DNA of 61,838 nucleotides, filler included, from Sphacelaria rigidula (lineage: Eukaryota): the NCBI GenBank assembly GCA_964200075.2. It is 11 parts of 11 records of this genome, joined end to end, with 100 filler letters (N's around TTAATTAATTAA, not from the genome) between each part and the next. Parts side by side here need not be neighbours in the genome. Positions count along the whole stretch, not along the records: positions 45,049 to 50,578 come from CAXNAA020026589.1; 10 more parts are not named here. One strand, written 5' to 3'. This document shows positions 5,532 to 59,640 of the stretch, piece after piece. The notes beneath the pieces are model-generated. The model ran no database searches and was not told the origin of the DNA. It was given only the letters and a program-made list of their open reading frames with translations. How positions within the stretch are numbered: position 1 is the stretch's first letter; every line of letters starts with the position of its first letter. The position numbers and the translations under genes were made by a program.

Positions 5532-5631
5532 NNNNNNNNNNNNNNNNNNNNNNNNNNNNNNNNNNNNNNNNNNNNTTAATTAATTAANNNNNNNNNNNNN
5601 NNNNNNNNNNNNNNNNNNNNNNNNNNNNNNN
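5532..5631. other. Artificial 100-bp contig spacer (N44-TTAATTAATTAA-N44); identical spacers at 11163-11262, 16794-16893, 22425-22524, 28056-28155, 33687-33786, 39318-39417, 44949-45048, 50579-50678, 56209-56308
   Basis: Identical N-runs with a central six-frame-stop 12-mer, spaced exactly 5631 or 5630 bp apart. Confidence 0.98.
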
Positions 5632-11020: not shown

Positions 11021-11339
11021 TTTCTTCCGGTTGGTTATTTCCCCTCGTTTTTGCAAAAACTTACGAGGAAAAAATACCGCTAGAAAAATACGATGAGAGA
11101 TGCTGACCCTGCCTTACGGTTCCAGACATAATTTTTAGGGGGGGGGGCGTACTCATTTGTGGNNNNNNNNNNNNNNNNNNNNNNNNNNNNNNNNNNNNNN
11201 NNNNNNTTAATTAATTAANNNNNNNNNNNNNNNNNNNNNNNNNNNNNNNNNNNNNNNNNNNNGAGGGTAGTCGAGCTAGATCATGTTGTGCGGCGGGGGA
11301 GACCCTCAACTCTGCACAATGGGGATGATCGCACCGCGT

Positions 11340-35699: not shown

Positions 35700-38600
35700 C
35701 ATCCGCTCACATACAGGGCCTCCTTGACACTGTCTGCCATTGCTTCATACTCTGCCTCAGCAGTAGAAAGGGTGACGCACTCCTGCGACCTATAGAACCA
35801 AGACACTAGCGTACCTCTGCAGCAATTAGCTACACCGGAAACGGAACGTCGGTCCTCCGTTTTATAGGCGTAGTCTGCGTCAACGTACGTATCCAAATCA
35901 AACTTGAACTGGATATATCCCAAGTCGCTACTCTTCTTGAAACGTGAGCTGAAGTCCGACGTAGCATTCAAGTAGTCGAGTTTCTTCTGTGCCGCCTTGA
36001 AATGAGTCAGCTTGGGTTCATGAGAGAACCAAGCGATTGCCGAACTGCATTCGCAATATCTGGCCTCGTTTGGTTCGCTATCCACATCGAGCTCCCCACG
36101 ATCTCTCGGAGAGGCACACCCACTACGGTCTCCTCCTCGCTTGCATGCGTGAGGTCTAGGGAAGGGGTAGCGGGAATGGAGCTAGTCTTCTAGACGTCGA
36201 AACGATTTAGCACACTTCAATCAACTGAGTTTGTAAAATCTCCAAAGTGCCTCTCTCCCGGTCCCTTTTGTACTCCCTCCCCATGTCCCGCTCTATACCC
36301 CACCGAGATGTTTAGTGGGAATTTCTGATTGAATGCATAGACTAACTTTTGTCATCTCCTCAATAGCTACTATCATTACGTCGTCCACATGAAAGATCAT
36401 GATCGCCACAACGTCATGAGCAACCGTCAGTCGGAACACACAGGGATCTACCAAGCATTGCTCGAAACCACACTAAACCAGGGTTGACGGCAATAGTTGA
36501 TTCCACGCACAACCACTCTGCTTCAATCCGTACAAAGCCTTGTTGATATGCACTACCTTACCAGATACTGATCCACAACTGGCGCAGATCCGAGTAAATA
36601 TCGGTACCCAAATCCAGCCTGGTCTGCATTTAAGTGCCTCAAATGTTAGTCTAGCTTACATGTTATAGCCGCCACTAACCTGTTTGAAGTAGCAGACGCT
36701 GTAGTGGCAAATGTCTCTCACTAGTCTACTTCCGCTACCTGACTCTACCCATTGCTACCATATTGGCTCTCGCCCGGGCAACCATACCATGTGAATTATT
36801 CTTCCATTTATACGAGCACTTCGCGTCCACAATGTTGCACCCCTCTGGGATGCCGGTAACCTCCGCCAACGCTCCGGCAGCCATGAGCCCATCGAGCTCT
36901 ACCTTCATCGCCTCCATCCACACATCCGAATATTGTGATGGACACGCTGCAGAGTACGACAACGGCCCCGGCCCCACTACCCTAGCGAGACATTAAGGGA
37001 TCTCGCCCGGTTTGCGGGTAACCTGTTTTACTGTCAACAGCCCTTGGATTATTTGCCCCCCTTCATCGGGCCTCAAGATAGTCACGACCCCAGACGCTCC
37101 TCGATTGGGCGCTTGCGTCTGCGCTGTAGTCCACCCAAGCTCCTCGCTATTTCCAGATGCAAACAGATTTGACTCAAGCTGGCGCGCCGCAGTCCGTGTT
37201 GCCGTTAAAAATGGAACACTTTCGTCCGATGAAGACGACTCGCCTGCCTCCAGAGAGAGGTCGCCATCGGCAGACGGCTCACTACTCACCGATGGCAACT
37301 AAGTACCTAGAGAAGCAGTTTTTTTGTCGGGGGCCGGCTTATTTTCATCGCCAAAAGAACCCCGCTCACATTCACGATCATGGTCTGCACTCTTCGCCGG
37401 ATATGTCACTCGACGCTGATGGGAGATTCCTCTCTCCAGTAGCGGTAATAGAGTCGGTGGGGCAAAATCGAAATCATCTACACCTCCCGGCTCTGTAGTC
37501 TCTCCCGACTCCGATGTCCCTCCCGGCAGTGACGTCCCTCCCAGCTCCAACGCTCCTGCCAGTTTCGGCGAAGCTGGCTGCTGTAGTTGTACCGGTGTCA
37601 CCACCATGACCGACAGCGTCTCCCAGGTGACGTCCTTTGTCCCCGTTACTTGACTTGCCCGTGTAGCATTCGCCATGAATCGCGGGGGTGGTCGATGCCT
37701 CCGGCAGCCTCGCGTGAATCAGCGCTACCGGGGCTATTGCAGCGAACGCCAGGGGAACAGCGTTATCTTGTTGCACTGAATTTTCGGCTATCCACTTCTT
37801 ATTATCATTCTCAATGCTATCAGGCTCTCCCACCGCACCCTTCTTACTTTGTTGCATACCAATCGATGAACACGCTATGATATCAAAAGAGCCATTCTGC
37901 AATTTCTTCGCGGCTGTGATGACGTGTGCGGTAAAGTCGAACCATCGATGTCCTGGCTCCAAGAATCGATGGCACTTGTTTCGCATGTCGTGGTACTTAT
38001 TGCCTACGTTTTCCGTACTGCCATTCTGGTCGTTTTTGTTCGCTACAGTACCACTGGAAACACCCCTGCCACGTTTGGCGCCATCATGATTGCGATTTCG
38101 GCGGGTGGGCTTGCTAGTAACGAGAGCTCGCCATACGTTACGGTTCTTGGTGCCATTCCTAGGCATGCGCGTGTGTCTCTGTTGTACAGTAGCCTCTAAT
38201 TCTGCTCGGTTGATATTGCCTCCGTACAAGATCGTACGCTGTTCGTACTCCTAGTCGCTTGTGAGTACCTCAACTATCTTGAGGTTGACATCCTCTACAG
38301 GCATATGTACCCCTAGTGACAGAAGTACACCCACAATCTTATCCACGCGCGCGAAAACCTTCATTGGATCTTCCTTATTCTCCATCTGTAACTCGTTGAA
38401 AAGACGTTTTCACTTCGATTTTTCCGAGAGGGTTTTCGGGAGAAGCCAATTACATACAAGCGCGAACCCGCATTCGGGGAGTTTGGGTCAAATACCCTAC
38501 CTGACCATTCACGGTGATGTCCTCCGTCAAACATGCCCAAGCCACGCGCGCTTGTTTCATGCTTGTCTCAGTAACACCTTGCAGTCAACCAAAAACCTGG

Positions 38601-38770
38601 AACAAACTGAGGGGTCACCTACGGGCATGTCAATAGCTGTGGTAAAAGCTCGCATACAATCATTAGATAGAGCAAAACCCTCAAAGCGCCTTTCCCATGA
38701 AGGAAAATTGACACTACCTAGCTTGGAGGCAGCAGTTTTGATGCTGCTTATTTCCTTAGGACTCATCGCG
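35700..38770 (-). mobile_element. Degenerate Ty1/copia LTR retrotransposon (gag, zinc-knuckle remnant, RT, RNase H; integrase not detected)
   Basis: gag-like NFPSWERRF; knuckle remnant KCHRFLEPGH; RT motifs WMEAMKVEL, KALYGLKQS and IFHVDD; RNase H YVDADYA...DRRSVSG...LSTAEAEY; many stops and frameshifts. Confidence 0.92.
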
Positions 38771-41202
38771 AAAGTGCCACATCCTCTTATTCCAACTTCA
38801 CCGATAGCTGGCAGCAGGCTATCGATGGTGACTCCACCATACGATCGGACGCAGACCTTGGCCGCTCCCCGTCCGCAGCACCGTCAAGATACGATGGTTG
38901 ATTTCCACCGACGGATCTCTCTATTCGTCCGCCTGTGTTTTCCGGAGCAGCCTCGATGCATGACAGCCTTTCTACCAAGGCCCTTGTTAGTGCCTCGAGC
39001 AGCGCCCTCAATTCTTCGATTGCACCGCTTGATCCGCCATCTCACAACAACGATCCAAGTTCGAACTATCACGTTAACGTATTCGAATGATCGTGTTGAT
39101 CAGATGGCCTCGCAGCAACAACGGCTCCTTACTGTGTGCTCAAGCAGATTGCTGTCCTTTTTAACCCTTTGGGAACCCTCCCCTCCCGTCCCCGGTCCAG
39201 ACGCCTCATTATTTCAAGTGCTGACAAAGAAGAAAAGATGAAAAAAGAAAATACCGACGACAACCATTATTATGCCGGAAGGCCACAGAAGAATCCGCCG
39301 ACATACGTCATGTTTGCNNNNNNNNNNNNNNNNNNNNNNNNNNNNNNNNNNNNNNNNNNNNTTAATTAATTAANNNNNNNNNNNNNNNNNNNNNNNNNNN
39401 NNNNNNNNNNNNNNNNNGGCCGTACCTGTCCAAGCCTGGAACAAGCACCTCTCGCTGGCTCCACCAGGCAGTAATTGCCCCGCTTTTTTGAAACGCTCAC
39501 GGACTCGCCAGCTGTCGATAAACCCCCCGCACCTCACGCACGAGCGATACCACAGCCTGCCCTTGCACTGCCTCGGAATCTCCTCGGCTCTACTTCTCCA
39601 GCTCCTCGCGACGTTAACACGCCTTGAGCTGGTCTTGTTTGCTGCAAATTGATCAGGCCTGCAGACTTCCCTATCTTGAAGTGTCAGCTGCTTTCAGCGG
39701 ACCTACCGCCTCAGCAGACGTAATGAACGTTCATTATAGACTTCTGTCACTCGAAATCAGATCGCTATATGGACTCCTCCCATCAAGGGCAAATGGACTC
39801 CGGCAGCTTTAGGTATTCATATATTAGCCCTTAGCATATACAGCAGAACAGAGCCATAGTCTCTCTCCACCAGAGTAGCAAAACACTCTACTCGTCATGG
39901 AGGTCACCGTTACAGAGTACGGAAATCAGACCCGCAACTCCACCTACAATGTCCCTGATCTTAGGTAACAATGGTGGCTAGGTCTACAGGACCGATGTCT
40001 CTGGTAATGCTGAAGTGCGCTGAAAATGTGCCTCCGGGTGCTGGCTTCTCGATAGTGCATGCTGTCCTCGGACTTGCTGGTGATGGCACTTGAGATGGTT
40101 TCTCTTCGTGAAAAACCATTTGATTTTAGGTTGTGCTGAGTGTGCTAGCTGCACAGCATTTACTATGCCGCGGTTTGTCGCGGTTTGTGTCCTCGAGCTT
40201 CCTGCGACATTGGCTCGTCCCGCGTTTCAGGTGCGCAGGGGACGTAGCTGACCCCTGCTGTGGTGCTGATGAACCTATTTTCATCAGGCCAAGCACTTCT
40301 CTGATATACCCCTCATTCTCTCGTGATGTTGTAAAGTTGATGCTGGAACTGCCCTGGTGTAATATCTCGGGCTGCTGCTTCAGTTGATCATCGCGGGTCT
40401 TCCGCCGTGAAGTTGCCCATCTCTTTGTCGTTGAAGGCGAGAACACTTCAGTTCGTGTTCCCCTCCTGCAATGACCACCCTGGCTATAGCTGACGCGCTT
40501 GTCCTTTTCGTGAGATTTCAGATCTTGTCCACTATCTGTACTGTTGTGTGCGGTTGAAGACTTGAACAATGAAATTTTACATTCACTGTGTACGAGCTGG
40601 GCCAGCCTACAAACGGATTTGTAGTTTGCGGGCCCATTCGTCGGCCAATATTTAAAGTTGGATCCTGAAATTGAGTATGGACAATGAATGTGGCGACACA
40701 GGAACAATCACGCGTGAACCCATATTTTTTCATGTGATAAGTGCATTTTACTGATGCCTGAAAATCGATTATTGCGCTTAATCCATGAGAATAGAAGAAA
40801 AAAATTCGGTAAATGCGTATTTTGTTTTCATTGTGGCTGTGACGCCAGCTAGAAAAAAGACTGATGGATCACTGCAGTTGAGGGACTCCCCAGTCCCACT
40901 GGCCTCATTTTCAGTCGTCAGCCTTTACAACATCTCATTTTTATCAGTCGTGCCTACCAGGCATCAACCTTCTAGACACGCAGGGTTTATCCCCGTGTCC
41001 CGATCATTCCCAAGAATCCTCCCAGAATCCCTCATAATCCCCGTTCTCCCAGTCATTATCAAGATCATCGCTACCAACTCAACGTAACGGCGTAATTTCG
41101 TCGCAGCACCCCCAAAGCGCGTTGGACGAAAATCGACCAACAAGCTTGACACATAGAAAAAGCCAGAATGATGAGTAAGTCATAACTGAGTACCAAACTC
41201 AC

Positions 41203-44200
41203 TCATAATGCGAGCAGCAACGGCACGAGTCGCGCGCAATTTACGCAAACTACTGCCTTGACCATGCGTTTGCACGTGCCGTTAGACCACGGAGAATACG
41301 CCACCGCAAACTGGTGATCAACGTGCAAAGCCTCTCGCAATCGAGCCAAGATCGCACTCTTGAAATGCGTGGCGGTATCACTCACCCACACACGCGGCAC
41401 CCCCAAAGGTTTGCACCAATTCAGCAAAGATGCAGCAGTCGATTCAGCAGTACACGCTGCTACTGGTTCCAGAGACGAAGTTGCTCAAATCATCCATGAA
41501 CACCAAAATGTATCGAAACCCAGCATCCTCCGACAAGCCTTGGGAAGCTAGCGGGTCACTCTTGCCCACGTACAAGAAGTCAAAATGAACGACTTCATTT
41601 GGCATGATCCCATGGACCGTTTCGCCGAGTGGGTGGGGAACAACATCTCCCGCCCTCGAGTCAGCACAGTGAAGACACTGGTGGACAAATTCGCGCAAAT
41701 GAGTTTCTATCCCCTGCCAGACACAAACCTCTTGCAAGCGTACGAGCGTCGCAGCCACACCACGATGCCCAGCATCGCGCATGTGTGCGCATACAATCAG
41801 ACGTACCTGCAACTGCTTGTCAGGATTCGGAATCCACAAAACGTTTCGGCCACGCACATGCACACGAAACAGACCTTCATTGTCCAAGATAGCGGTACCA
41901 ACGTTCGACTCGAAAGATTGCACATCCACATCTTCGGCCCCAATATCTTTTCGTTGCGCTTTACGAACAACATATTTGGACGGCATCGACTCATGGGGTT
42001 CACACGGACCGTACATAGCCACAGCGCGCACAGGCAAACCCGGAATATATACCCAACACGAAAGCAAGTCACCCCACGCGTTACAGTCACCCGAAACATG
42101 GCAAATCAAGTAACAATACTGGCCAAGAATAGCTTTCCAACTCTCCAAGTGTTGTGCCAATGCCCTCGACACAGACGTAACGCACGCTCCCGGGTTGAAA
42201 ATATACACGAGATTTTGGGGATCCGTGAAAACGTGCACGCCATCCCACAACAAATACTCCAAACGACGAAAACTGCTCGCGAAAGTAAAACCTTCTCTGT
42301 CAATTTTGACCCAACGCAACTGGAAACCCTTGAAATTACCATGAGGAAAGCCAGCGGTTCATGCGCCACACCCTCAATCGGCAAGCGTCTTTGCATCTCA
42401 ACTGTAGGGACCTGCAAAACAAAACTACCCCAATGGCACTCAGATGCATCCGGAAATATGAACATCTGACAATCAGGACGAGGATGGAACAGCGTCACGG
42501 CATGAGCCACCCGATCCTTCGCTGCCGCCCACGCCTGCAGCCTGCCCTCCGCCCACGATGCAGCCTTCTTCGAAAAGGGCATATTTGGACTAGACCACAC
42601 CGCCTGCAAATTCCGTAACAACAACTACAGCGCCAAAAGAGCCACCATGCACGACGCCAACCAACTCAACTTCACTGGATCGTACCGCCGCGGCTTCGTC
42701 TTCACCGAGGACGCCCCAGGTTTTAGCTGAACACGCATGGGCTCCACGCGCGTAGGGGGATCACTCTGCAGCGCACGACGAAACGCATTGACGGGGCGAT
42801 ACCATATGCCACGAAGCCGCTCCGCTTGTGTAACGCTGAGGTCTTTCGCCACAGCATCCGTCACGCTTTCCTCCAGCGCGACCTTCCGAGCGGACTCCTC
42901 TTCCACCGGATCATTGAACATATCCGGGGCGCGCTCGACCGAGCGTTCCATCGCCGCATCACGCTCCTCGGTCACCTGCCCCCCAGCCTTCTGAGAAGCA
43001 TCCACCGGCAAGCTCACGCGACGACTACCAACAACGGCGGGCGTCTCCAAGTGCGGACGAGGCGGAGACATGTGCGTCTTCATGGAGTCCTTCAACCGCG
43101 CATACGGGTCGACTCAAAGATCCTGAAGCGTCGGCAACCGCAGAAGAATGACGTCATCTGACGCCAGCATGATCGTAAACGAGATCGGAGGCCCAGGAAG
43201 TCGTGAAAGTCAGCTGCAGCGGAACAGTACGCAATGTGAGGTAAACATTCTGATCCGACGCGGTGACGGGCTGCCGCGCCCCGAGCAAAAACGGTTTGCA
43301 CAGCGGCACACCCGGGAGAAGACGCTCCAACATCTTTACAATATGTACCGACAGACTCACATGACCCGTCAAGTGGGCGCCAGAATCCCACTTAGCCCGA
43401 ACCGCAATGGCTCCATGCTCCCGTTGATTTGGAAGACACAGCTCTGCAGGAACGTATTTGTGCGCGATCTCCACTGGCACTTTATTCGCCGACCGATGCG
43501 CCGCTAATCCCACTTGACGCCATGGCTTCGCGAGCTGCGCAGGCGAAGACGCCGCGGCAGGTCGAAACGGCACCGCCGGCGGGTACGACCCTTAGCCAGC
43601 AGACCAAGAATTCGGCGAACCTCCGACCGGCGCATCAACAGGCGTCGCGCCTGGCGCTGCTGCCGGTGTCACCACCGGCGCCACCACTGGAGCTGGCGCA
43701 GTGTTCGACACTGTAGAAGTCGGTCCCACCTGCACCGCCCGTTGCGGAGTAGCATCACCTACGGCGACGCCGGACCCAGCACCAGACCCATGCTGACGCC
43801 GCTACCCCTGCTGCTGCCACTGCTGCTGCTACTGAAGACACGACTGCGAACCTCCATCGCCGGAGGGTCCGCCGCCGGCGTCACCCCGATTACCTCGTCC
43901 TTTGCCCTTGTGCTGACGATGCTGATGGCGCGCGGCACGAGACTGCCCAGACTCTCCACCAGAAGACGTTGGGCAATCGCGCGCGTAATGGCGACCTGGC
44001 CACAGCGGTGGCAGGTGATGGTTGCAGCGCGGCCGGCTGATTTTGAGTCGTGGTAACGTAAAGGCTTCGACGTGGAGGTGGACGACTGGCCGAACACCTC
44101 TATCTTCCGCCACCCCTTGACCTCGGCCACGACGGTGTCCATCACCAGGTATTGGTCGGCCTTTCAGTCCGTTTGTTGCTGCACCTTTACAAGCACGGCT

Positions 44201-44846
44201 TGCTTGGATTTTCCCGGTGTCAGTCCCTCCACCAAAGCCTTGGTGATTACAGCAGCCGGCCGGGAATAAATTCACCATCGAGGGAACGATATACGAGTTC
44301 CACGTTCGGATTTGCCGAAAAGTGCTCATCCAAACTTGACAGGATGGGCTCCACCCGCTCGAACATCGTCTTTCCCCGAGAACCCATGTCGACAGCTTTC
44401 GCCACGGCCGCGGGTGCTTGGATCAGCTCCGCCTCGGCGCCCGCCGCATGCCCAGCATTCTTTTTGATCGCCGCAACCAATTGCGGCGGGGTTATTGTGC
44501 TCTCATCATGTTTCAAACAAGCAAACACTCTCTGCACATGCGTCGACACCTGTTGAGCCATCGAAACTACCTGATGTCGCACTGCACCCCCTGCGTTAGC
44601 GTGCTCCACACGCTTTCTGTACTCCGAGTACTTCGTATAAAAAATGCGAGATGCACCCTCGGAGTACCTATTCCTGTATTGGGGAGGTCGCAACTCTTTC
44701 CACATAACCACAGGCGTCACGTTGGACGCATCACGCGAGCCGGTCGCCATAGCTGCAACCGCGAACCCTTTGCAGGCCAGCGGACCTTGGCGAATTGCAC
44801 ACTTCGTTGCTTCGTCGCCGCACCACACAGTTGTAGGAGCTTCCAA
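41203..44846 (-). mobile_element. Degenerate Ty3/gypsy LTR retrotransposon (gag, CCHC, protease, truncated RT, RNase H, integrase)
   Basis: Frameshifted CHRCGQ/GHYARDC knuckle; protease WDSGA; RT start KPRRYDP; RNase H FPDAS and VFTD; integrase H..GH..CLHC, HFDFL, WVSD..THF and WSNG; gypsy domain order. Confidence 0.92.
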
Positions 44847-45049
44847 ACTCCCGCTGCGACACTTTCTACGATAGACTAATGCCGAGATAGCCCCCCCACA
44901 AAAAGTGCACCGGCACGATCCAACGAACCGGCTGCGATCCCACTATTGNNNNNNNNNNNNNNNNNNNNNNNNNNNNNNNNNNNNNNNNNNNNTTAATTAA
45001 TTAANNNNNNNNNNNNNNNNNNNNNNNNNNNNNNNNNNNNNNNNNNNNG

Positions 45050-45263
45050 CATAGATTTATAATCAATCCATCAATAGCTATTGCCGTCATCAATAGATTT
45101 GATATGCAATCTGTCAATAGCCATCGTCATCAGTAGATTTTGCACGCGTTCTATCGATAGCCATTGCCGTCACCAATAGATTTCAAAAGCTATGGATCAA
45201 TGCATTTGGTCGGCCGCAATAGATTTCGGTGTAGGGCCATAGCAGACTATTGTCCAGGGTGTG
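45050..45263. repeat. ~43-bp tandem subterminal repeats (CAATAGATTT...ATAGCCAT) ending in a TTGTCCAGGGTGTG TIR
   Basis: Four to five tandem units followed by the same terminus as the CACACCCTGGACAA MITE family. Confidence 0.65.
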
Positions 45264-45439
45264 TATCAGTACCATTCGAGCATAAATTCGCACAAGGCTG
45301 GCAATATTTCGCTCAGCACATGCAACGCGACCTTCCTCGCAGTAAACACCACGCATCGTCCGTGCCAACCAGATCAGCACGTCAGAGTTTTACCCTGCTC
45401 ACGCGATACGATCATACTCGCTCAACGACCATGTTTCAT

Positions 45440-47490
45440 GCGCAAACATGACCACAAATCACACAAAAACAAGCTGAAATGAGTCCAGCTACAGCTCGCA
45501 CCCTCGCGGAGCCGCTCAGCTCACCACTAAACGGTATATCCGCACCGCCAAACCAATGCGATAGACCCTCCGCCATCACAGATGCTTGCGCGTTCACAAA
45601 CGCTCGTTCTTCAGTCGCTTTTTCAGAGGAAACAAGCGGCGAAACGGGAACATCCATACAGTCCCGCACAGTAACACCTCCAGAGGGCATAACGCCATCC
45701 TCTTCCAGCACCCGACCGTACAGCTGCAAGACACCGTAAACAGCATCGCCAAATACGCCAAACCCATCCATGCATACAGTAGTGCACACGACCACCCCAA
45801 CACCACGCGACGCTCGTCGTCGCCGTCGGAATTGTGATCGCTAACAGCATCACGAGCTTGCAGCTCGCTCTGCGTGCCCGCTTCACGCGGGTCACACGCC
45901 CCTGTTGTTTCGAACATGCAAGGCGTGTCCACAGCCACGCGCTGCTCCGCGGCAATTCCGCCAACCCGGCATCCACCTGTCCTTCAAGCAGACACCCCTG
46001 CGAATCATCTGAACGATCTCCCGCCATGTCACTGGCGCACATACATTCACCATGAGCACGGCAAGCTCGTTGCTCACCCTGCTCGTTCGCAATACGCGAA
46101 TAACATCCCCTGGAGCTTCGAGCATGCAAGGAGTATCTCCAGCTACGCGCTGGTCCGGCGGCAACAAGCAACTGGGACCTCCGCCCACCAGTACTTGCTC
46201 ATTGACCCACAGAGGCCTCGCCCTCTCAACATCGCCAACAGCAGCAGCAGTATCACCCATACTCGATATAGCCGCCAACTCCTGTCCGGCTTGCTCCTTT
46301 ACGGCAATAGCAGCAACGCCTCTGGCGCTCTCGTGCCTGTTCCCCCGGACTAGCGATGGCTGTGTGATTTGTTCGCCTCTTCCAACAGCACTGCCAGCGG
46401 CTGCTAAGTCAGCATCGACTACTGTTCTCTTCCTGTTCTTGCTGCCCAGTGCGTCTCCTCGGACAGACACATGCGTCGTCGCCTTCGCACCCCTCAAAGT
46501 GGCACCGGGTCGTTGCTTCAGTGGCGGGCGAGTCGTTCCTACTACTGCACGCCCAACAGCTGCACTCTCGTGTCTGCTCACTCGGACAGGCCTATCCAGT
46601 GTCGCCTTCTTGCCCGTCAAAATGTTGTGCCTGTCCCCATTGCCGCCGGCCTTCACACTATCTTGCACCACACTCTGCGATGCATGAGATGCATGCTTGC
46701 GCAGCGCAAAGAGCAATTTCTCGTGCCCAACATCATTCGCACCATCCAAGAATGTGTCACATAGACAGTCCTCGATATGTGCGGGCATGAGGTCAGAGAC
46801 CGCTGGCTCTCAACAATGTGCCAGCGTGCTTGACGCGCGTTCGTTGCGTCCACCTCACAACGGTAGTTCACATACTTCCGCAGAAACTGAGCAGATTCTT
46901 CACTTGAGAACTTGCGACCGTAGTAGGGCATATCCAGAAATCGTACACGGACAGCGCGACCATTGATGACAACAGATTGTTTCGGCGCACGAACATGGCC
47001 GTCCACCGCGACATACTCCTGCACCCCGTACATTTCGGTCAGCAGTAAAGCACTCCACACCGCCTTTTTTTAAAAACAAAGTCGCCTCCCACACACAGGG
47101 ACAACAACTCTCTTCTTACACGGAGACGCGCTGTACCACCTTACAACGACGACCACACACGCCTCTTCCTCACGCGGTTCTCACCACATCTTGAAGTCCT
47201 TAGACTCCTCTTCCTGACCGTATCTGGCCAAGCGTGGACCAGGCAACCCTGGCTAGTTCCACCAGGCGGTAATTGCGCCGCTTTTTTGGAATGCTCACGG
47301 GCTCGCCAGCTGTCGATCAACCCCCCGCATCTCTCGCACGAGCGACACCACAGCCCGCCCGAGTACTGCCTCAGAATCTCCGCGGCTCTACTTCTCCAGC
47401 TCCTCGCTACGGTAACACCCCTTGAGCTGGTCTTGTATGCTGCAAACTGATCAGGCGTGCAGACCTTCCTATCTTCATGTGTCAGCTGCT
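45440..47490 (-). mobile_element. Fragment of a second gypsy-like element (5' leader and decayed gag)
   Basis: YYGRKFSSEESAQFLRKYVNYRCEVDATN parallels YRNRYSEGASRIFYTKYSEYRKRVEHAN of the contig-8 gag; leader ~47215-47495 is also present at 39418-39700. Confidence 0.6.
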
Positions 47491-48254
47491 TTTCAGCCCA
47501 GATTTTACCTCTTCGGTATTTTCGGTAGATCGAGCCTGTCCCGATCGTATTCGTGAAGAAATATATTGGCGTGTTCTTTTGAAATCACTGCTACTCATTG
47601 TACTAGAGCCGAATAACTGTATTCCAAGGTAAAAAAACCCCTCCTGATCAACGGGGTATCTACCATCGCCCGATAACACCAACTAGCTCTAACTTGGGCA
47701 CTGTATTTTGATGACGATCTGCTTATTTTACCAAAATCTACCGATGCCAGCATTTTCGAGAAGACCCCCGAAACAACCCTGAACAGTGCAGGCGCTCGTC
47801 GCTGTACGCATCCAACACCCCACCCGCCCTTGCAACCCAGTGCCCAACAATATGAGGGAGGAGCAGGGGTCATGCCATTCCTCAACTTCAAGCTTCGCAA
47901 TTGAACCGGTCAAGCCGGTTCATCAGAACACCCGGTTTATCCGCCACAATATTCATCGGAAAAAACGGTGTAACCGGTTTTCCGGTCAACCAAACAAACC
48001 GGTTTTTGTTCTTACACGTGCCCACCTCTACTAACCCATATATGACCCGAGCATATTTTCTGGCAGTACTGAGCATAAAACCTCCTACTCCCTTCGACAC
48101 GCGCCTGTTCTAATTTGTATTCAAGTGCGTATATGATGGTGCATAACGATCGCTCACTCCATCGATGATGCTGGTCTGGCTCTTCGCCTCGCACAACATT
48201 TTTTAGCTGGCTCGTCTTGTATGACGTACAAACCATGAGCTTGTATGTTGGAAC

Positions 48255-50578
48255 ATGTCAATGTCAGATATCTTTGATACGGCTAAGTATGCTTTGGCAT
48301 CGGCTTCACATGCTTTGTGCAACGATCATCCTGCAATTGTACGATACTGGACCTTCATCCGCTCCCGATCCCTTCCGCAATTGTGTAGAGGACGTCCCAT
48401 TCGCTGGAATCATCTTGCAAGTAGCGTTCTAAATGTTGGCGCCAGCGTTCATGAAGCGTCGTCTGCGTGTGATGCAGGCAACTACTTTTCCTCCCAATCA
48501 TGTGCCGTAGTAGCAACGCCGTTTGTTTTGCAAAGCGTTTCAACTCACTTTCACCCAGGACTCACGAAATATGTTTGCCGTCTTGGTATTTGTGCCACCG
48601 TGAGCAGTTACTTTTCAACCGAGCACGACACGAAGGAGCTGGTAGTGGATGTCGCCAGAAAAAGCGCATCGAAACTGGTTCAAGCTGCCGCTGGCATCTC
48701 ACGTTCACGGGGCTACAAGGCGGAGGTCCTCTCCAAGCACGTCAGCGCGAAAATGGTGGATGTGGTGAGCAAGAAGTGCGGCTACGAGGGCTGCTCGAGG
48801 CAGCCGTCGTATGATCTCGTTGAAAGCAAGAACGCGGAGTTCTGCTTGAAGCATGCGGGGCCGGGAATGGCGAGTGTGACGAGCAAGAAGTGCGGGTACG
48901 AGGGCTGCTCGAAGCAGCCGTCGTATGGTGTGGTTGGAAGCAAGACGGCGGAGTTCTGCTCCAAGCATGCGAGGGCCGGACTGGTGAATGTGGTGAACAA
49001 GAAGTGCGGCTACGAGGGCTGCTCTACGAGGCCGTCGTATGGTGTGGTTGGAAGCAAGACGCCGGAGTTCTGCTCCAAGCATGCGAGGGCGGGACTGGTG
49101 AATGTGGTGAACAAGAAGTGCGGCGTCGACGGCTGCACCAAGTATCCTTCGTTCGGTGCAGCAGGAAGCAAGACGGCGGAGTTCTGCTCCAAGCATGCGA
49201 CGATGGAAATGGTAAATGTGGTAAGCAAGAAGTGCGGCTACGTAGGCTGCTCCACGAATGCCTCGTATGGTGCCGCGGGGAGCAAAAATGCGGAGTTCTG
49301 CTCCAAGCATGCGACGATGGGAATGGTGAGAGTGACGGGCAAGAAGTGCGGCTACGAGGACTGCTCGAAGCAGCCCTCGTTTGGTGAAGCGGGAAGCAAG
49401 AAGGCGGAGTTCTGCTCCAAGCATGCGGCGGCGGGAATGGTGGATGTGGTGAACAAGAAGTGCGGCGTCGACGGCTGCACCAAGCATCCCTCGTTTGGTG
49501 TAGCAGGAAGCAAGAAGCCGGAGGTCTGCTCCAAGCATGCGAGGACGGGAATGGTGGATGTGGCGAACAACGGGTGCGGCTTCGATGGCTGCTTCACCAG
49601 GCCATCGTTCGGTGTAGCGGGAAGCAAGACGGCGGAGTTCTGCTCCAAGCATGCGAGGACTGGAATGGTAAGTGTCGTGAGCAAGAAGTGCGGCTACGAA
49701 GGCTGCTTCACCAGGCCATCGTTCGGTGTCGCAGGAAGCAAAAAGGCGGAGTTCTGTTCCAAGCATGCGAGGGCGGGAATGGTGAGTATGGCACACAATG
49801 GGTGCCGCTTCGATGGCTGCTTCACCGTGCGATCGTTCGGTGTAGCAGGAAGTAAGAAGGCGGAGTTTTGCTCGAAGCATGCGAGGGCGGGAATGGTGAG
49901 TATGGCAAACAAAGGGTGCGGCTTCGATGGCTGCTTCACCAGGCGATCGTTCGGTGTAGCAGGAAGTAAGAAGGCAGAGTTTTGCTCCAAGCATGCGAAA
50001 TCGGGAATGGTTGATGTGGTGAGCAAGAGGTGCGGCGTCGACGGCTGCACCACGCATCCCTCGTTCGGTGTAGCAGGAAGTAAGAAGGCAGAGTTTTGCT
50101 CCAAGCATGCGGCGGCGGGAATGGTGAGTGTGACGGGCAAGAAGTGCGGCGTCGACGGCTGCACCACGCATCCCTCGTTCGGTGTAGCAGGAAGTAAGAA
50201 GGCGGAGTTCTGCTCCAAGCATGCGAGAGCGGGAATGGTTGATGTGGTGAATAAGAGGTGCGGCGTCGACGGCTGCACCACGCATCCCTCGTTTGGTGTC
50301 GCAGGAAGCAAAAAGGCGGAGTTCTGCTGTAAGCATGCGAGGGCGGGAATGGTTGATGTGGTGAATAAGAGGTGCGGCGTCGACGGCTGCACCACGCATC
50401 CCTCGTTTGGTGTCGCAGGAAGCAAAAAGGCGGAGTTCTGCTGTAAGCATGCGAGGACGGGAATGGTAAGTGTGGCGAACAACGGGTGCGGCTTCGATGG
50501 CTGCTTCACCAGGCCATCGTTCGGTGTAGCGGGAAGCAAGACGGCGGAGTTCTGCTCCAAGCATGCGAGGACTGGAAT
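48255..50578 (+). CDS. EsV-1-7-type cysteine-rich tandem-repeat protein (3' end lost in gap)
   Basis: Uninterrupted ORF; 16 units of 38 aa/114 bp from 48771 (KKCG.EGC...PSFGVAGSKKAEFCSKHA..GMVDVV., C-x4-C-x16-C-x2-H); true start uncertain (48255 or 48753). Confidence 0.9.
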
Positions 50579-52878
50579 NNNNNNNNNNNNNNNNNNNNNN
50601 NNNNNNNNNNNNNNNNNNNNNNTTAATTAATTAANNNNNNNNNNNNNNNNNNNNNNNNNNNNNNNNNNNNNNNNNNNNGTTTCTGGCCATTTTTCGTACC
50701 TTTCTTAGGCAAAAAACGAGAAGGTATACCTTTTCTAGGCCATTGCCCTTTATCATTTATAGGCGAGCTCAGCAACCAACCTCCAGCCCCAACGAGCCTC
50801 CAGGCGCTCTACCGGATGACACAAACTACTGAAAACGATAGCAACGCTTCTGCCCAGATTCGTAAGGCGACTTTGGTCGCTAAAGTTGTCTTGCCTTTCG
50901 CGGCTCACGGTGATCCCGTGGACGGGTGAAGTCGGAATGCAAGGGTGCACTACCCTTGCATCTCCCATACAACACGAGCTACTCCCGATGCTCGGTGGTG
51001 ATTATTGTCCACCTGACGCCGACTTCGCTTGCGACCCTGCCCCGAACGTTTTCACTCATGTGATGCCTCTGTGTAGCCGAGCTGCTCGAAGGAAAGACTA
51101 GCGGGTGCGGGATATGGCTCCCTTTTGCTCATTCGTTTCTCGTTGTAATCAACACACCACTGGAACGTTACCATTCTATATTCAGCGTGATCCACGATGT
51201 GATGTGCCATCCTGTCCGCCCCAACACAATCTTCTGTCTCCCTCAGCAACGCAAACTTTCCCGCGCAACCGCGCGCTTCGTTTACTCGCGTATGCATGAG
51301 TAAAGCTCATACTCCTAGATATACATGACGCCCCTCCTCTGACACACCCTCACCCATTCCTACACAAAATGTCAATGTTTCGGTATACTTATCCTTGAAC
51401 CTGGGCCTGCCCCAATTTCTTGTTCAACGCACCTCTGCAACCCACTCGCGCCCAACACCACCAAAAAATGCACAGCATATAATATGTAAAATGCGCAAAA
51501 AAATACCATATATACAGTATACAGAGTCTCGTGGCGTTGAGGCTGTCTCATGTACACAAGCCTATTTTTTTGCTCGCATGCATTATTCCTTCCCCTTTCG
51601 TCGCACTGCCATTTCGGAACGGAAACCTGAAATAGTTGTCATCAGACCAGTGAAAAGTGCCCCTGAAGGGGAGGTGGAGGGGGGCGACCTGCTGCGCATG
51701 TTGAAGAAACAATTTCGTTTGACACACGAAAATATGGAGAAATAGTTCACTGCATGATGTTTCGGCATCTCCACTCACCGATATACCATCTTCTGGCACA
51801 AACCCTACCGTGACTTCACCAACCCCTGAGACTGATTTGAACCCTGGTTTGTTCCCCAACTCTCGAACTGTACCTAACGTTTATCCTGTGAAGGAGGGGG
51901 GGGGGTGAATTCCCGAGAAGGCACGTAAACACTCAAAAAGGACCTGAATTACTCAACCTTATCCTACCTGCTGTGGGCAGCCATGACTGTCAAACGAAAT
52001 TGAGTACGGAGAACATAGTTGCATGGAAACCCACCTAACTAATTGTCGGTATGCAACGTCGTAGCACCTATACCAAATGAGGCGCGCGGGGGGGGGAGGG
52101 GGGGGGGGGCGGGAGGGCTTTAATGGCTGAGCAGGTTGATTAAAGATTGACTTTTACAAGAGAACAAAGCAGGCGGCGCCGTGCACATGATATGGACAGT
52201 GGTCTACACAGAGACATATCACTTTGGGCAGCCGCTTCGTTAAGCAATGACTACAACCAAACTAAGGTTTAACGCAAAACGCCTATCAAGATTCATAGGG
52301 GAGACTCCGTGCACCAATTCTAGGAGGAGAGGGGACTATGACTGTCGTTGCCGTATCTTGTACGCTGCTGCTACGAGAGAGGGCTTTCAAGATATTTTTT
52401 CTCCCTGTATCCCTGTCTACCCGGCAATAAATTGATTGAACTCAAAGGTTCTTTTGTGGCTACTCGTTTCACTCCTCGCTCTACAAAGCGGGCATCCCCT
52501 CGACACACGAGTGTACGGAGCCCGTTCAGTTCTCCCGAGCAGTTTGTTGCGCCGTAACCTACTACATGTACCGATCGGCGCTGCGTGTTGTGCCTCCGAG
52601 TAGTACAGTACTACGGTACGTGAAAGCCACCGATGTGAAACTATTTACGGCCTTCGGTTACGCCTGGGCGGTCGGTGTGAACCTGTAGGCTGCATCCATT
52701 TACAATGAACGGGGCCTGGGTTCTCCTTTTTAAAATCCAACAACCTGCATCTTGTGCTCCGTTGAGCCCCGTCCTGTCTCGGCCAGCAAGTGCGACAACA
52801 TCCTGAGCATTGAGTGAGATAACTCCGGAGTTGTCTCGATTTTCCGTCCTTCTGCAACTCGGCCGAGAGAAATCACCA

Positions 52879-53341: not shown

Positions 53342-53402
<61 letters not shown>

Positions 53403-54283: not shown

Positions 54284-57200
54284 GTACATGTTTCGTATCA
54301 GGGCAAGCAGCGTAGATCATCATAGCACGATGAATAGATGAAGGACCCAAAGGTCAAGTGGTGCGCAATGTCAGGATTGACCAGAAACAAGTCCCTCGGG
54401 ACATCTGTTGACCGACAAGTCATATGACTTGGTCGACGTCTGATGTCGTCTATGGCCGTTTGAAGCGATGTGACGCTTGGGCAAGGATGGCGTCAGTCGT
54501 CGACCAAGGAATATTGAACAATCAGATGGCCCAATCTTGTCTTCCGACTATCAGAAATTTGCGTGTTGGTTTGTCCTCTGTGCCAGCACGATGAATCACT
54601 ACAGGACACACACACACCGGGTTTGCGAAATAGACGAGGTCAATTGACGACACGCTGCTCCACCATATCTAGCTGCACGCACCTCTGCGTGTTGTCACGT
54701 ACGTCAGGCACCGACCTGAAACTGCCCGAACCCCGCTCCAACGTGGACAAGTGGTCTCGTTCGGCACTCGTGGATGGATTTTGTTTCGCACTAGTGGATC
54801 CGCCTTTCATCCCGGAATTGAGGTTAGTCTTGACAGTCGGTTCGAATAGGGACGGGAAAATGGGCACACCTTTGCGGGTCTCGACCCCGCCACCTGCTGC
54901 TTTCTATCCAGGCGGGGATCACATGGGTGGAATGGGGCACACGGACACGTCGGCGTATGAAAGAAGCGCTGTCTAGAAAGTATCATGTCGGCTGTGATTG
55001 AGGTTTGGTGAACGAACCTAGTACACACACATATTTTCACGACAACGGACAGGAGGGTGGTCGGGTGCTACTGAGGCCCTTCCCGTCCCTTGTGCGTTCG
55101 ACAAGCAAAACGATTTTCAAATTCTGGGAGGGAGCTCGAACCCTGGAGCGTCTCTACTAGCCCGCCTCGACCTCAAATAAATTACCGTATGGCGAGGAAG
55201 AGCTCACCTTTATCTTACCGACAATAAAGTACAGTGAGGGCGAAAATGCGCCACGGTCTTGCGTTATCACGTAGCCTCCATCTGATGTAGATATCCCAGG
55301 TGGACATCCATCCGAGATATCACATCCCAGATTTTGCAGGATTACGTCCCAGATACTGTAGGTACCGTCGTAGGATATGAACCCCCATCTGGGATATCCG
55401 TCTGGGATATCCAGTCATGATAGTATATCCCTCTAGGGCATACATCTGGGGCATGGGCATTCATCTGGGAATTGGTCATCCATCGCCCTCCTGTCCCCCG
55501 ACCCCCGCCCGACTGGAGGTGGTTGTGCCAGGATATACCAGCCCCAACCAGCAACCAGTCGACACAAGCACGTGTAGGAGGGAGTGACACGACCTAAAGA
55601 TTAGCATGTGTATTGTGTCAGTAGTGATGCAACACACAAACTAGCCAGTGAGTGGTCATGCGGACAGTGTTCACCTCCAGACTCAACCCTGGAGCTGCTG
55701 AGATTGTCCGTACTGGAACTCAACCCGACTCCACGGCTGTGTTACCCGAAGCTGGGGCACTGCCGCGGAAAACTCGTTGATGGAAATGAGACACGTGTGA
55801 CTGAGTACCAGATTCGGCGGAGGGGAGCTGACGGTCGGCTTGGGTTGACATGACTGCACCCTCCCCGTGAGACCAAAACGGAAGGCGCGTACAGTACCAT
55901 AATCGATGTGTCAAGGGAAAATCGGAACAGAAAAGCTTAGGCGTGAGATTTTAAGGAGGACAAAGAGTGATCCTACGATAGGGTGGGAGGAGTGTTTGAT
56001 TCCACGCGAAAAAAGGACTCATAGGTGAGTCAAACAACCTAACACACTCGCGGTGAGCTTGTATTCAACCGTTGCTGCTTTCAACGTCGCTTTGAAGTGG
56101 AATATCTTCGAAACAATGGCTCAAATCCCCCCCCCCCCCCCCCCCCCCCGCACTGCCCATATGGCGGGGCGGGCGAGAAACCAAGGAAGAAGGCAGAGGG
56201 AGAGAGAGNNNNNNNNNNNNNNNNNNNNNNNNNNNNNNNNNNNNNNNNNNNNTTAATTAATTAANNNNNNNNNNNNNNNNNNNNNNNNNNNNNNNNNNNN
56301 NNNNNNNNTAGCAAAACCTCGTAACCTGCATGACCGAAATGCTATTGTTGTTCGCTCTAGTACTCGACTTGTACAGTAGAGACATGCATGTGGACGACCA
56401 CTAAGGCAAACTATATTCCTTTTGTATCAAATTCCTCCAGGGCGGTAAACGTTTCGAGCTTCCAGAGGAACTGAACGCCTCTGGAGGGGTGCGCGGCCCT
56501 CCAAAGGATTACTTTTTTGTTGTCTCCAGAGGGAATAAACGCACCGGGACGCTTGGTTTTGCCTCCGTAGGGGTGCGCGGCCCTCCAGGCCGGTAGTGTT
56601 TGATTTCCTCCTGAGGGATTGAAGGCCTACGGAGGCTTGTCTTGCCTCTGAAGGGCCGCGCATCCCTCCGGAGGCATTTTGGGGGGTAGCCAAATGGCTG
56701 CGTGTGTAGGGGTGCCAAAGGCGGGGGGGTTGCTAGCCTACGAAAAGTGTCCGGCGTGTGTGGCGACACTCTACTAACCATCCTGAACCATCGCCCCTTT
56801 TCGTTCGTTTCTTGGGATACACTTGATTTTAGACTTCATTCTTGACAGGGAGAAATCGTGCGTGAAGGTGACGCTATTCCTATTCAGACGCCATATACAC
56901 CTCCGCACCAGTGAGACATTCCGGGGTTGATCCATATTTCCACGTGCATTTCAAGCCGACTCTCAAAACCTGCAGAAGAAATAATAGGCTGTAGTCCGAC
57001 TTTTCCTGCTGAGCGCGGCATGTGCCCTGTATCCAGTGGGTGCATTTCGGCTCAAAGCACACAACTCAAAAATGGCGAACACGCTCCGGCCTTGTAGTTA
57101 GTGTGAAGGTAATATAAAAAATAGCCGTTGGTTTGTTTTTTTCCTCCAAGGAGGATGTTAGGGGCAATATAATAGTTCTCCTGTATGCGTTCGTCGAGCA

Positions 57201-58997: not shown

Positions 58998-59640
58998 TGC
59001 GGTGCTTGCTTTTATTTTTATCGCGAGTAGGGTTCAGCAACCCCTTTCCCTCGTCGACCGTCAAGTCGAATTTTGTGTACCCACGACATGAACGCTCTCC
59101 ACTGTTGGGCATGGTGTGAGAAAAAACCCACATCTCTCCGAGAATTGAACTCACGACCTTACCGTCAGAAGGTTTCGAGGTTATCAACTGAGCCATTGGG
59201 GCGACCGGTTGCGGTGCTTGCCTTTGTTTTTATCGCGAGGGGGGTTCAACATTCCCTTTCCCTCGTCGACCGTCAAGTCGAATTTTCTGTACTCACGACA
59301 TCGTCGCTCTCCACTGTGGGCACGGTGTAAGAAAAGATTCCAGATCGCTCCGAGAATTGAACCCACGACCCAACCGTCCGAATGTTTCGAGGTTACCAAC
59401 TGAGCCACCGGGGCGACCGATTGCGGTGCTTGTCTTCATCTTTTTATCGCGAGTGGGGTTCAACATTCCCTTTCCCTCGTCGACCGTTAAGTCGGATTTT
59501 GTGTACCCACGACATAGATAGTCGCTCTCCGCATTGTTGGGCATGGTGTAAGAAAAAATCCTAGATCGCTCCGAGAATTGAACCCACGACCCAACCGTCA
59601 GAAGGTTTCGAGGTTACCAACTGAGCCACCGGGGCGACCG
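58998..59640 (-). mobile_element. Three head-to-tail tRNA-derived SINE head modules (58998-59207, ~59208-59419, ~59420-59640)
   Basis: Minus strand begins CGGTCGCCCCGGTGGCTCAGTTGG (A box) and has G(G/A)GTTCAATTCTCGG (B box); no canonical tRNA acceptor stem seen. Confidence 0.8.

Follow-up and report, generated by a model that had tools for sequence, protein, structure and literature searches.

The window analysed here (61,838 nucleotides of Sphacelaria rigidula DNA, assembly GCA_964200075.2) contains what is, as judged from its sequence, a real gene of brown-algal type with at least 16 tandem EsV-1-7 repeats, predicted to bind zinc and assignable to the known EsV-1-7 family (PF19114). Within the 38-residue unit, columns 4, 5 and 16 behave as if they set the recognition of each unit. 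The chances seem to us evenly poised that the protein would be a strongly basic zinc-finger array which binds nucleic acid, probably in the nucleus, and whose units each bear a specificity patch of several residues.

The repeat array and its 5′ edge

48756-50578, plus strand: EsV-1-7 array of 16 units of 114 nt (38 aa) each, located by Tandem Repeats Finder (TRF), Pfam and a motif regular expression
50579-50678, no strand: artificial junction of two window pieces (N44, stop linker of 12 nt, N44), not an assembly gap within the gene

Unit i of the array starts at 48756+114(i-1). As the first-pass annotation had described, the units are perfectly phased: TRF delineated 16.3 copies of a 114-nt unit at 48717-50578 (83% matches, 1% indels), the expression C-x4-C-x16-C-x2-H gave 16 matches whose 15 spacings were all exactly 38 aa, and Pfam aligned 16 stretches to PF19114 (EsV_1_7_cys) with 796.1 bits (cut-off 25, E 1.7e-246). 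The residue pairs read at the second and third positions after the second Cys were likewise exactly those listed before. All 64 zinc-ligand codons of the array were intact, and the pooled units yielded a pS of 0.31 and a pN/pS of 0.54, which indicates that purifying selection acts on the array.

The plus-strand frame was open from 48255 up to the N run, over approximately 2.3 kb, and the description of the array as one intronless frame holds for the part inside this piece and cannot be carried beyond it, the array being cut at 50578. The window is composed of 11 pieces of 5530-5531 nt, with 20 N runs of 44 at regular spacing. Since the piece with the array ends at 50578, the C-terminus is missing and no natural end of the array is present; owing to the same cut, unit 16 ends after column 37, lacking its last residue, and 16 units are a minimum. 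The unit count comes from the assembly, no read contig spanning the array, and is thus not independently confirmed; unique parts of the array were recovered, with 99-100% identity, in contigs from four sequencing runs of three studies.

No further C-x4-C-x16-C-x2-H was found outside 48700-50600 in the six frames of the window, 13 of the 14 long ORFs elsewhere in it had no Pfam match, and blastx of the flanking sequence and two neighbouring pieces against EsV-1-7 family proteins returned nothing. Two minus-strand ORFs were set aside, one (48705-50564, 619 aa) as a by-product of the repeat and the other (45892-46809, 305 aa) for want of support, as were the Pfam rows Phe_ZIP, Rrn7, Spt5-CTD and NOD2_WH, noise summed over the repeats with 0 stretches passing.

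The features assigned to the 5′ edge are as follows.

48255-48752, plus strand: upstream in-frame ORF extension of 166 codons, probably noncoding or only 5′ UTR; residues 1-130 significantly matched none of 120 relatives
48605-48752, plus strand: possible 5′ exon part after a splice acceptor (AG 48603-48604), from a contig of run X7
48711-48755, plus strand: partial-unit remnant, columns 24-38 with Cys30 replaced, from the consensus match and the TRF array start at 48717
48753-48755, plus strand: probable start codon, context GCGAAAATGG, judged by where paralogues start and by the surrounding sequence

Residues 1-130 of the frame had no significant BLASTP match among 120 relatives (best E 1.2), and because the 167 aa upstream of unit 1 are unlike any relative, translation probably starts at the ATG at 48753, the equivalent of which opens 6 of the 15 relatives listed (M-x7-Cys). 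Of the 45 nt before unit 1, 33 agreed with the unit consensus, against only 20 of the 69 nt preceding them, and the Met codon at column 38 of this putative remnant is the likely start codon. From run X7, presumably an RNA run, one contig covered 48605-48781 with a 144-letter loose end before 48605, and contigs of runs X1 and X5 ran straight through 48361-48781; a 5′ exon part starting at 48605 behind a splice acceptor may, very tentatively, be read from the former. Both X3 and X7, presumably RNA runs, had almost no cover over 47600-48600, an observation to which no weight is given regarding expression.

Relatives of the array protein

The closest relatives of the array protein were brown algal proteins. 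The search returned 127 relatives, the best named of which were S. rigidula proteins of 57-66% identity, and 6520 cluster representatives matched at E<=1e-3. A 38-aa spacing was the commonest in most relatives with several motifs, and the number of units in the 284 other motif-bearing proteins had a median of 7.5 and a maximum of 16, the at least 16 units of the array being at the top of this range; taken alone, the array gene stands out in the family by its unusual length and is otherwise ordinary. A close orthologue was not found, the best local identity being 66% with no full-length copy, and three matches to longer proteins were rejected as such copies, resembling instead fused gene models (UCH/DUSP/MYND or reverse transcriptase).

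The founding paper of the EsV-1-7 family is reportedly that of Macaisne et al. in 2017. The family includes IMMEDIATE UPRIGHT (IMM) of Ectocarpus and the EsV-1 virus gene EsV-1-7, and the array resembles it in motif, 38-aa period and stand-alone arrangement. IMM differs from the array of at least 16 repeats in possessing five repeats and, ahead of them, a unique N-terminal domain, features by which it is defined in a genome study (10.1101/2024.02.19.579948) that counts 2018 EsV-1-7 members across 31 genomes. EsV-1-7 genes make up one of the largest brown-algal expansions. In the literature, EsV-1-7 is presented as a possible novel zinc-finger class, biochemically uncharacterised. In giant-virus contigs, a single-protein query located 14 viral loci of 32-44% identity, which are too distant for the array to be a recent viral insert.

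Unit-to-unit variation at columns 4, 5 and 16

The first-pass annotation had proposed that the second and third residues after the second Cys form a modular recognition code. Within the array, column 16 (the third residue after Cys2) was indeed the most variable (2.25 bits), with a pN of 0.60 versus the pooled pS of 0.31; the linker columns 2, 35 and 36, however, were as variable as column 16 within the array, and on its unit tree changes numbered seven each at columns 2, 5 and 36 and six each at columns 16 and 35.

Family-wide column statistics were drawn from 161 relatives with 983 units, these being canonical units of the best-scoring relatives of one query. The unit-to-unit difference within proteins peaked at columns 16 (0.812), 5 (0.812) and 4 (0.797), the next column reaching 0.706, and the bootstrap intervals of the three lay above that of the next column, although the relatives are interrelated and the intervals are thus optimistic. 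The ratio of within- to between-protein difference was 0.90-0.95 at columns 4, 5 and 16, against 0.69-0.80 at other variable columns, and the best covarying partners of column 16 were columns 5 and 4. Asp and Glu together amounted to 2-5% at these three columns (2% at column 16), and to 15-38% at columns 9, 10, 11, 22, 24, 28, 32, 35 and 36. Column 15, mostly Lys or Thr, had a within-protein difference of 0.558. The residue pair singled out at first was thus half right, column 16 being highly variable, polar or basic and conserved between close orthologues, and column 15 ordinary. Nor was variation limited to two sites, since 14 of the 38 columns exceeded 3 bits in the family and columns 4 and 5 equalled column 16.

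Conservation between species was assessed in 21 sets of close relatives comprising 97 units, all of them other family members and not this gene. Changed unit-sites at columns 4, 5 and 16 amounted to 14/288, as compared with 50/776 at other variable columns, and 741/8451 sites outside the repeats were changed in the same sets, the three columns thus changing at about half the non-repeat rate. At columns 9-11, 14-16 and 21-22, none of nine aligned unit pairs differed (two Ectocarpus species pairs and one further pair). Fast turnover of the variable positions, of a PRDM9 or arms-race type, was not seen in these 21 sets of other EsV-1-7 members. What survives of the recognition-code idea is its extension to columns 16, 5 and 4, which are variable, covarying and nearly free of acidic residues, and not its two-residue form.

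Candidate ligands and the place of the array among repeat proteins

The 608 aa of the array have a net charge of +49 and a pI of 9.3, family units have a mean charge of +2.8 with 87% of 628 units positive, and Lys or Arg accounts for 72, 56, 54, 60 and 51% of residues at columns 6, 7, 15, 25 and 26, respectively. Of 236 relatives, 50 had tails with runs of at least four Lys/Arg (21.9 expected from shuffles), and a KRKRA-like run was present in 5 of 15 close paralogue tails. Among relatives having 230 or more residues outside the repeats, none of 65 had a second Pfam domain, which fits a binding array with disordered tails. One relative, P0050, combined eight units with a match to a resolvase domain, covering only profile positions 44-142 and possibly reflecting a chimeric gene model, and PMC12477816 reports an Ectocarpus Tc1/mariner transposase with an acquired N-terminal EsV-1-7 domain.

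In the mechanism that we propose, the protein would act on its own as an array of 16 or more C3H modules with a single zinc each, every 38-aa unit being folded around one zinc ion. The conserved Lys/Arg columns 6, 7, 15, 25 and 26 would provide a basic surface holding nucleic acid, most likely nuclear DNA. The small acid-free patch, made up of columns 4 and 5 right before Cys1 and column 16 shortly after Cys2, differs from unit to unit and would add unit-specific contacts; a long composite target would then follow from the order of the units. The array, its membership of the family, the purifying selection, the pattern of variation by column and the charge are observed, and from there zinc binding, nuclear location, the nucleic-acid ligand and the role of the patch as specificity determinant are inferred.

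The zinc modules might instead serve as a protein-protein scaffold that docks partners in the manner of RING, B-box or LIM domains, the variable patch selecting proteins, a reading that we consider rather unlikely. The chains listed by VIA fold searches, for a model of four units as for one of a single unit, were all RING and B-box (Z 2.1-3.0), the sole PDB resemblances obtained. The AF2 models lacked any helix of at least four residues, and the linker strand in them is paired to a strand at columns 19-21, suggesting that the units are packed together and are not beads on a string; the lack of any catalytic or other domain in the 65 relatives would also suit a scaffold. The best RING/B-box alignment, however, had a Z of 3.0 with an rmsd of 2.7-3.2 over 42-43 residues, and Z<=3 lies within the stated noise of the tool. 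RING and B-box domains hold two zinc ions in a cross-brace, in contrast to the four ligands for one zinc predicted in the array unit. Foldseek of the 4-unit model against the PDB gave 0 matches at E<=0.001, a further PDB fold search nothing at Z>=2, and the ESM Atlas no usable match; PDB searches by single sequence and by unit profile each yielded one noise match (E 1.2 and 1.5), that by profile with no SBP chain. Moreover, the charge of +49, the depletion of acidic residues from the variable patch and its conserved neighbours, and the fusion of an EsV-1-7 domain to a transposase all speak against a protein scaffold.

The unit differences could also be leftovers of duplication and drift in a non-specific polyanion or chromatin binder without any code. 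The history of the array lends this some weight, as a younger half, which arose by recent internal duplication, is recognised.

49440-50578, plus strand: units 7-16, younger, internally duplicated half, from nearest-neighbour units and the unit tree

The nearest neighbours of units 7, 8 and 10-16 lie within the same array (31-36 of 37 aa, versus 25-29 of 37 for paralogue units), and nucleotide identity reaches 99% between units 14 and 15, 97% between units 8 and 16 and 91% between units 10 and 11. Linked residues at columns 10, 11 and 14 divide the units into three lineages, and columns 10 and 14, with two changes each on the unit tree, are mainly markers of duplication lineage; 28 of the 38 columns vary in the array, which, with the 14 family columns above 3 bits, is what drift would leave. 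On the other side, unit-specific residues are kept in close species, as seen from the slow change at columns 4, 5 and 16, and variation within proteins is not even but peaks at three covarying acid-free columns. We thus regard a codeless binder as unlikely.

A strict cipher of TALE/PPR type, with one base read per unit by the residue pair that follows Cys2, is very doubtful. Column 16 would suit it, as the top variable column filled by Arg, Gln, His, Asn, Lys and similar residues, but column 15 is not specially variable and columns 4 and 5 match column 16. TALE and PPR proteins, which share with the proposed mechanism the idea that unit order spells a nucleic-acid target, are helical repeats without zinc, and TALE units carry two hypervariable residues and are otherwise near-identical. 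The present units differ from these in varying at three or more key positions and at many besides, with 68-99% nucleotide identity among units. Least credible of all is that the array is a pseudogene in decay, a fragment carried by a transposon or a repeat misassembled: the cut that conceals the end and true unit number, the missing read contig across the array, the degenerate partial unit at the 5′ edge and a retrotransposon integrase remnant in another piece of the window are outweighed by the 2.3-kb open frame, the 64 intact ligand codons, the pN/pS of 0.54 and the recovery of unique array parts at 99-100% identity in four runs from three studies.

C2H2 arrays such as those of KRAB-ZFP and PRDM9 offer a parallel in design, being likewise built of tandem modules with one zinc each, whose scaffold is conserved and in which a few polar positions vary by unit. 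The C2H2 period is approximately 28 aa; the array here is C3H with a 38-aa period, the C2H2 pattern is absent from it, no zf-C2H2 appears in its Pfam list and its models are helix-free. According to the literature, C2H2 and EsV-1-7 genes are both expanded and tandemly clustered.

The DNA-binding SBP domain (SQUAMOSA promoter-binding protein; PF03110) has a first zinc site whose ligand spacing, given as CX4CX16CX2H in a published passage, is identical to that of the array units. Positions 1-37 of the Pfam SBP profile collected 35.6 bits summed over the array, with 0 single stretches passing, and the second SBP zinc site (C-x2-C-x3-H-x11-C) was absent from the 774 aa of the array ORF. Since there is no second site, no passing stretch and no SBP chain from the PDB, homology is unproven; SBP was absent from the VIA matches listed, which does not exclude it, and the literature searched did not name SBP and EsV-1-7 together. 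The EsV-1-7 unit and the first zinc site of plant SBP domains may possibly share an ancient kinship.

The EsV-1-7 family includes the developmental regulator IMM. Columns 4, 5 and 16 vary between units, stay conserved between close orthologues, are nearly acid-free, covary and are set in a conserved basic frame, which makes them the candidate specificity residues and DNA the first candidate ligand. More broadly, and as a conjecture that we think improbable, EsV-1-7 arrays could constitute a modular system for the recognition of nucleic acids, so far overlooked, in stramenopiles and their giant viruses. If so, the three-residue patch would let each C3H unit of 38 aa read a short sequence and the order of the units would spell a long target. 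Lineage-specific expansions, including this array with its continuing internal duplication, would then follow transposons or viral DNA that has integrated, as do the KZFPs of vertebrates.

Extent of the array and its gene model

The window consists of 11 concatenated pieces of 5530-5531 nt each, with joints at 5532-5631, 11163-11262 and so on to 56209-56308, and carries 20 runs of exactly 44 N, paired around a 12-nt linker with stops in all frames and recurring every 5631 nt; features cannot be assumed to be continuous across these joints. The features considered here are as follows.

Features of the window
45049-50578: piece holding the EsV-1-7 array
48756-50578, + strand: EsV-1-7 (PF19114) zinc-finger-like array
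41444-42358, - strand: 304-aa ORF with Integrase_H2C2 (PF17921), E 5e-9, on a different piece from the array; probably an LTR retrotransposon remnant
45051-45183: tandem repeat of 40-43 nt, about 3 copies, right at the start of the array's piece
53342-53402: perfect (TTG)20 microsatellite
58998-59640: tandem repeat of 212 nt x 3.0, 86% matches

Tandem Repeats Finder reported one array in this region (48717-50578; 114-nt period, 16.3 copies, 83% matches, 1% indels). The + frame from 48255 stays open up to a run of N, and its 774-aa translation (P0001) contains 16 occurrences of C-x4-C-x16-C-x2-H, with 15 of 15 spacings being exactly 38 residues, and gave 16 Pfam matches to PF19114 EsV_1_7_cys (796 bits, E 1.7e-246). 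In the rest of the window, the motif was found in no frame. The 16-unit array with fixed motif and phase claimed in the first-pass annotation was thus borne out far beyond chance, and its list of residue pairs two and three positions after the second Cys was reproduced exactly. As the piece ends behind residue 37 of unit 16, the array has at least 16 units and the C-terminus lies outside the window; no full-length copy of the array protein emerged when longer proteins were searched for. Read contigs of several runs joined distant units (48798-50514), skipping 803, 1715, 471, 886 or 873 nt, which could reflect paralogues, arrays that vary in length or an assembly that took shortcuts through the repeat. 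GC skew was negative throughout 36001-48000 (-0.08 to -0.21), over three pieces, and flipped to +0.16 over the array.

For the N-terminal 130 residues of the long ORF, comparison with 120 relatives gave no resemblance (best E 1.2), and 6 of the 15 displayed relatives begin with M-x7-Cys, i.e., directly with a unit. The equivalent ATG lies at 48753 (context GCGAAAATGG), where it provides the Met codon at column 38 of a partial unit that has decayed; agreement with the unit consensus is 33 of 45 positions in the 45 nt immediately preceding unit 1 and 20 of 69 in the 69 nt before those. One contig from sequencing run X7, a run guessed to be of RNA, spans 48605-48781 and extends before 48605 into a loose end of 144 letters, adjoined by an AG at 48603-48604; this loose end weakly hints at a splice acceptor near 48604/48605 and an upstream exon. 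Contigs of runs X1 and X5 pass straight through 48361-48781.

Position within the EsV-1-7 family

The gene is certainly a member of the EsV-1-7 family. The search returned 127 relatives with E<=0.001 (425-1355 aa); of those with a name, the best come from Sphacelaria rigidula (57-66% identity, covering 34-41% of the query), ahead of Ectocarpus, Pylaiella and Scytosiphon. When 1.84 billion cluster representatives were searched exhaustively, 6520 matched at E<=1e-3 and 3741 at E<=1e-10. Arrays were also present at 14 loci of IMG/VR giant-virus contigs; since these were only 32-44% identical and the closest named relatives were brown algal, the array gene is of host type, and a fresh viral insert was rejected. 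Units per protein had a median of 7.5 and a maximum of 16 among 284 other motif-bearing proteins, which places the window array, with at least 16, at the top of this range. The gene is thus a new member, of unusual length, of a known family.

According to one report, this family is hugely expanded in brown algae, with 2018 members in 31 genomes (10.1101/2024.02.19.579948). The literature also describes EsV-1-7 genes as often lying in tandem gene clusters, and the family as possibly of viral origin and including the developmental regulator IMM; in its repeat number of at least 16 the window gene is unlike IMM. None of the 65 relatives having at least 230 non-repeat residues contained another Pfam domain at E<=1e-6, in agreement with 10.64898/2026.04.27.720984, in which no Ectocarpus EsV-1-7 gene has one.

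Some predicted proteins combine units with other domains, namely P0050, a metagenomic relative (8 units and a partial resolvase domain), P0087 (copia-type gag), P0176 (UCH/DUSP/MYND domains) and P0178 (reverse transcriptase); they represent either genuine fusions to proteins of mobile elements or gene models that are chimeric. Pfam Zf_WRKY19 (PF24906) picked up a summed score in relatives P0006, P0062, P0066, P0075 and P0176, which in P0006 was 36.2 bits with no single stretch passing, hinting that a related short zinc motif exists in plants.

Variation and conservation of unit residues

Among the 16 units of the window array (68-99% nucleotide identity), 10 columns, i.e., residue positions of the 38-aa unit, were invariant, and entropy was highest at column 16 (2.25 bits), followed by columns 36 (1.88), 2 (1.76), 35 (1.67), 5 (1.65), 14 (1.58) and 10 (1.56). 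Column 16 also had the top per-column pN (0.60), ahead of columns 14, 2, 4, 36, 10, 7, 35 and 5 (from 0.46 down to 0.34). A tree of these units required at least 7 amino-acid changes each for columns 2, 5 and 36, 6 each for columns 16 and 35, 4 each for columns 4, 15, 21 and 26, and just 2 each for columns 10 and 14, which thus mark three unit lineages (Y-E..S, V-D..T and F-D..F) rather than vary freely.

A pool of 244 relatives gave 1096 distinct canonical units, in which 18 of the 38 columns exceeded 3 bits (14 in an earlier subset) and column 16 ranked seventh, so that by entropy the variation is spread widely. For the 161 proteins with at least 4 canonical units (983 units), the chance of a difference between two units of the same protein was highest at columns 16, 5 and 4, one of which took first rank in 200 of 200 bootstraps.

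Within-protein difference between units (bootstrap 95% interval)
Column 16: 0.812 (0.786-0.837)
Column 5: 0.812 (0.785-0.835)
Column 4: 0.797 (0.764-0.824)
Column 18 (next highest): 0.706 (0.659-0.743)

At columns 16, 5 and 4, units of one protein differed nearly as much as those of unrelated proteins (ratio 0.90-0.95), and the other variable columns kept a protein-specific flavour (0.69-0.80). The top covarying partners of column 16 were column 5 (APC-corrected MI 0.108) and column 4 (0.080), which would fit an arrangement of all three on one face, flanking the Cys1...Cys2 knuckle. Asp and Glu together accounted for 2-5% of residues there versus 15-38% at columns 9, 10, 11, 22, 24, 28, 32, 35 and 36, and the conserved basic columns around them contained K/R in 72% (column 6), 56% (7) and 54% (15).

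Minimum changes per site were then counted in 21 sets of close relatives (three pairs of 77-86% identity in addition to clusters of >=90%; 97 canonical units in all), which are other EsV-1-7 family members and not orthologues of the window gene.

Changes/sites and rate in the close-relative sets (totals include the single-unit cluster P0083, 27 changes/38 sites, probably a register slip)
Inside repeats: 158/3667, 0.043
Outside repeats: 741/8451, 0.088
Columns 4, 5, 16: 14/288, 0.049
Other variable columns: 50/776, 0.064
Linker columns 35-37: 23/291, 0.079

At columns 9-11, 14-16 and 21-22, 0 of 9 aligned unit pairs differed (two cross-species Ectocarpus pairs and one further pair). Together with the low rates, this indicated that unit-distinguishing residues are conserved between orthologues, which is the hallmark of positions that determine specificity and are kept by purifying selection. 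Neutral drift at columns 4, 5 and 16 was rejected on this orthologue conservation in other family members, and a PRDM9-like arms race found no support in the 21 sets.

Predicted fold and likely function

AlphaFold2 models of units 6-9 (54-row alignment; pLDDT 89.6, pTM 0.54) and of a single unit with flanks (pLDDT 81.2) both contained short strands only (columns 19-21, column 29 and the junction from column 38 to columns 1-2 of the next unit) and no helix. Among solved structures, Foldseek gave 0 matches at E<=0.001 and re-examination of its own list yielded nothing, while the best VIA-align hits among 48,161 chains were RING and B-box fingers (best Z 3.0, rmsd 2.7-3.2, 42-43 residues); neither method provided a convincing match for the unit. 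The ligand spacing is identical to that of the first zinc site (Zn1) of the DNA-binding SBP domain, as described in 10.1101/2021.08.22.457055, and the Pfam SBP profile collected 35.6 bits over the array, with no single stretch passing. Assignment as an SBP domain was rejected because the second zinc site is absent, and as a C2H2 array on the basis of the Pfam list and a pattern search.

Over its 608 aa the array has a net charge of +49 (pI 9.3); units across the family averaged +2.8, and 87% of 628 were positive. Non-repeat tails contained runs of at least 4 K/R in 50 of 236 relatives versus 21.9 expected from shuffles, and a KRKRA-like run was present in 5 of 15 close paralogues. These K/R runs, the resolvase domain of P0050 and the SBP Zn1 spacing together with the SBP profile score lean towards DNA. 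Our preferred interpretation, to which we give about even odds, is a nuclear, zinc-dependent nucleic-acid-binding array, in which the conserved Lys/Arg would hold the backbone and the small variable patch of columns 4, 5 and 16 would add unit-specific contacts.

That the array is instead a protein-interaction scaffold appears unlikely. Somewhat less likely still is a non-specific polyanion binder whose unit differences record duplication history only. Such history is visible, in that u7, u8 and u10-u16 have their nearest neighbours within the array (31-36 of 37 residues; 99% nucleotide identity for u14/u15, 97% for u8/u16), marking the distal half as a recent internal expansion, and that S. 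rigidula paralogue units are as close to u1-u6 and u9 as own-array neighbours; the orthologue conservation stands on the other side. We regard a strict two-residue cipher as improbable. Of the pair after Cys2 in which the first-pass annotation had sought a code, column 16 held up through its top within-protein difference, jointly with column 5, whereas column 15 was ordinary (0.558; K 47%, T 23%), so that the proposal was supported in part, with variation peaking at columns 4, 5 and 16 and not at a two-residue pair; the defining feature of a TALE-type code is lacking in the window array. A pseudogene or assembly artefact is the least credible explanation, as all 64 zinc-ligand codons are intact and the pooled pN/pS among units is 0.54 (pN 0.17, pS 0.31), indicating purifying selection with some relaxed or diversifying columns.

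Two features may be new, namely the positional pattern that columns 4, 5 and 16 show across the family and the ligand spacing shared with SBP Zn1; none of the papers searched names EsV-1-7 together with SBP, and those examined on EsV-1-7 give neither a ligand nor a code for these repeats. While the window gene is ordinary for its family, the analysis makes what EsV-1-7 repeats recognise a specific mutational and binding question.
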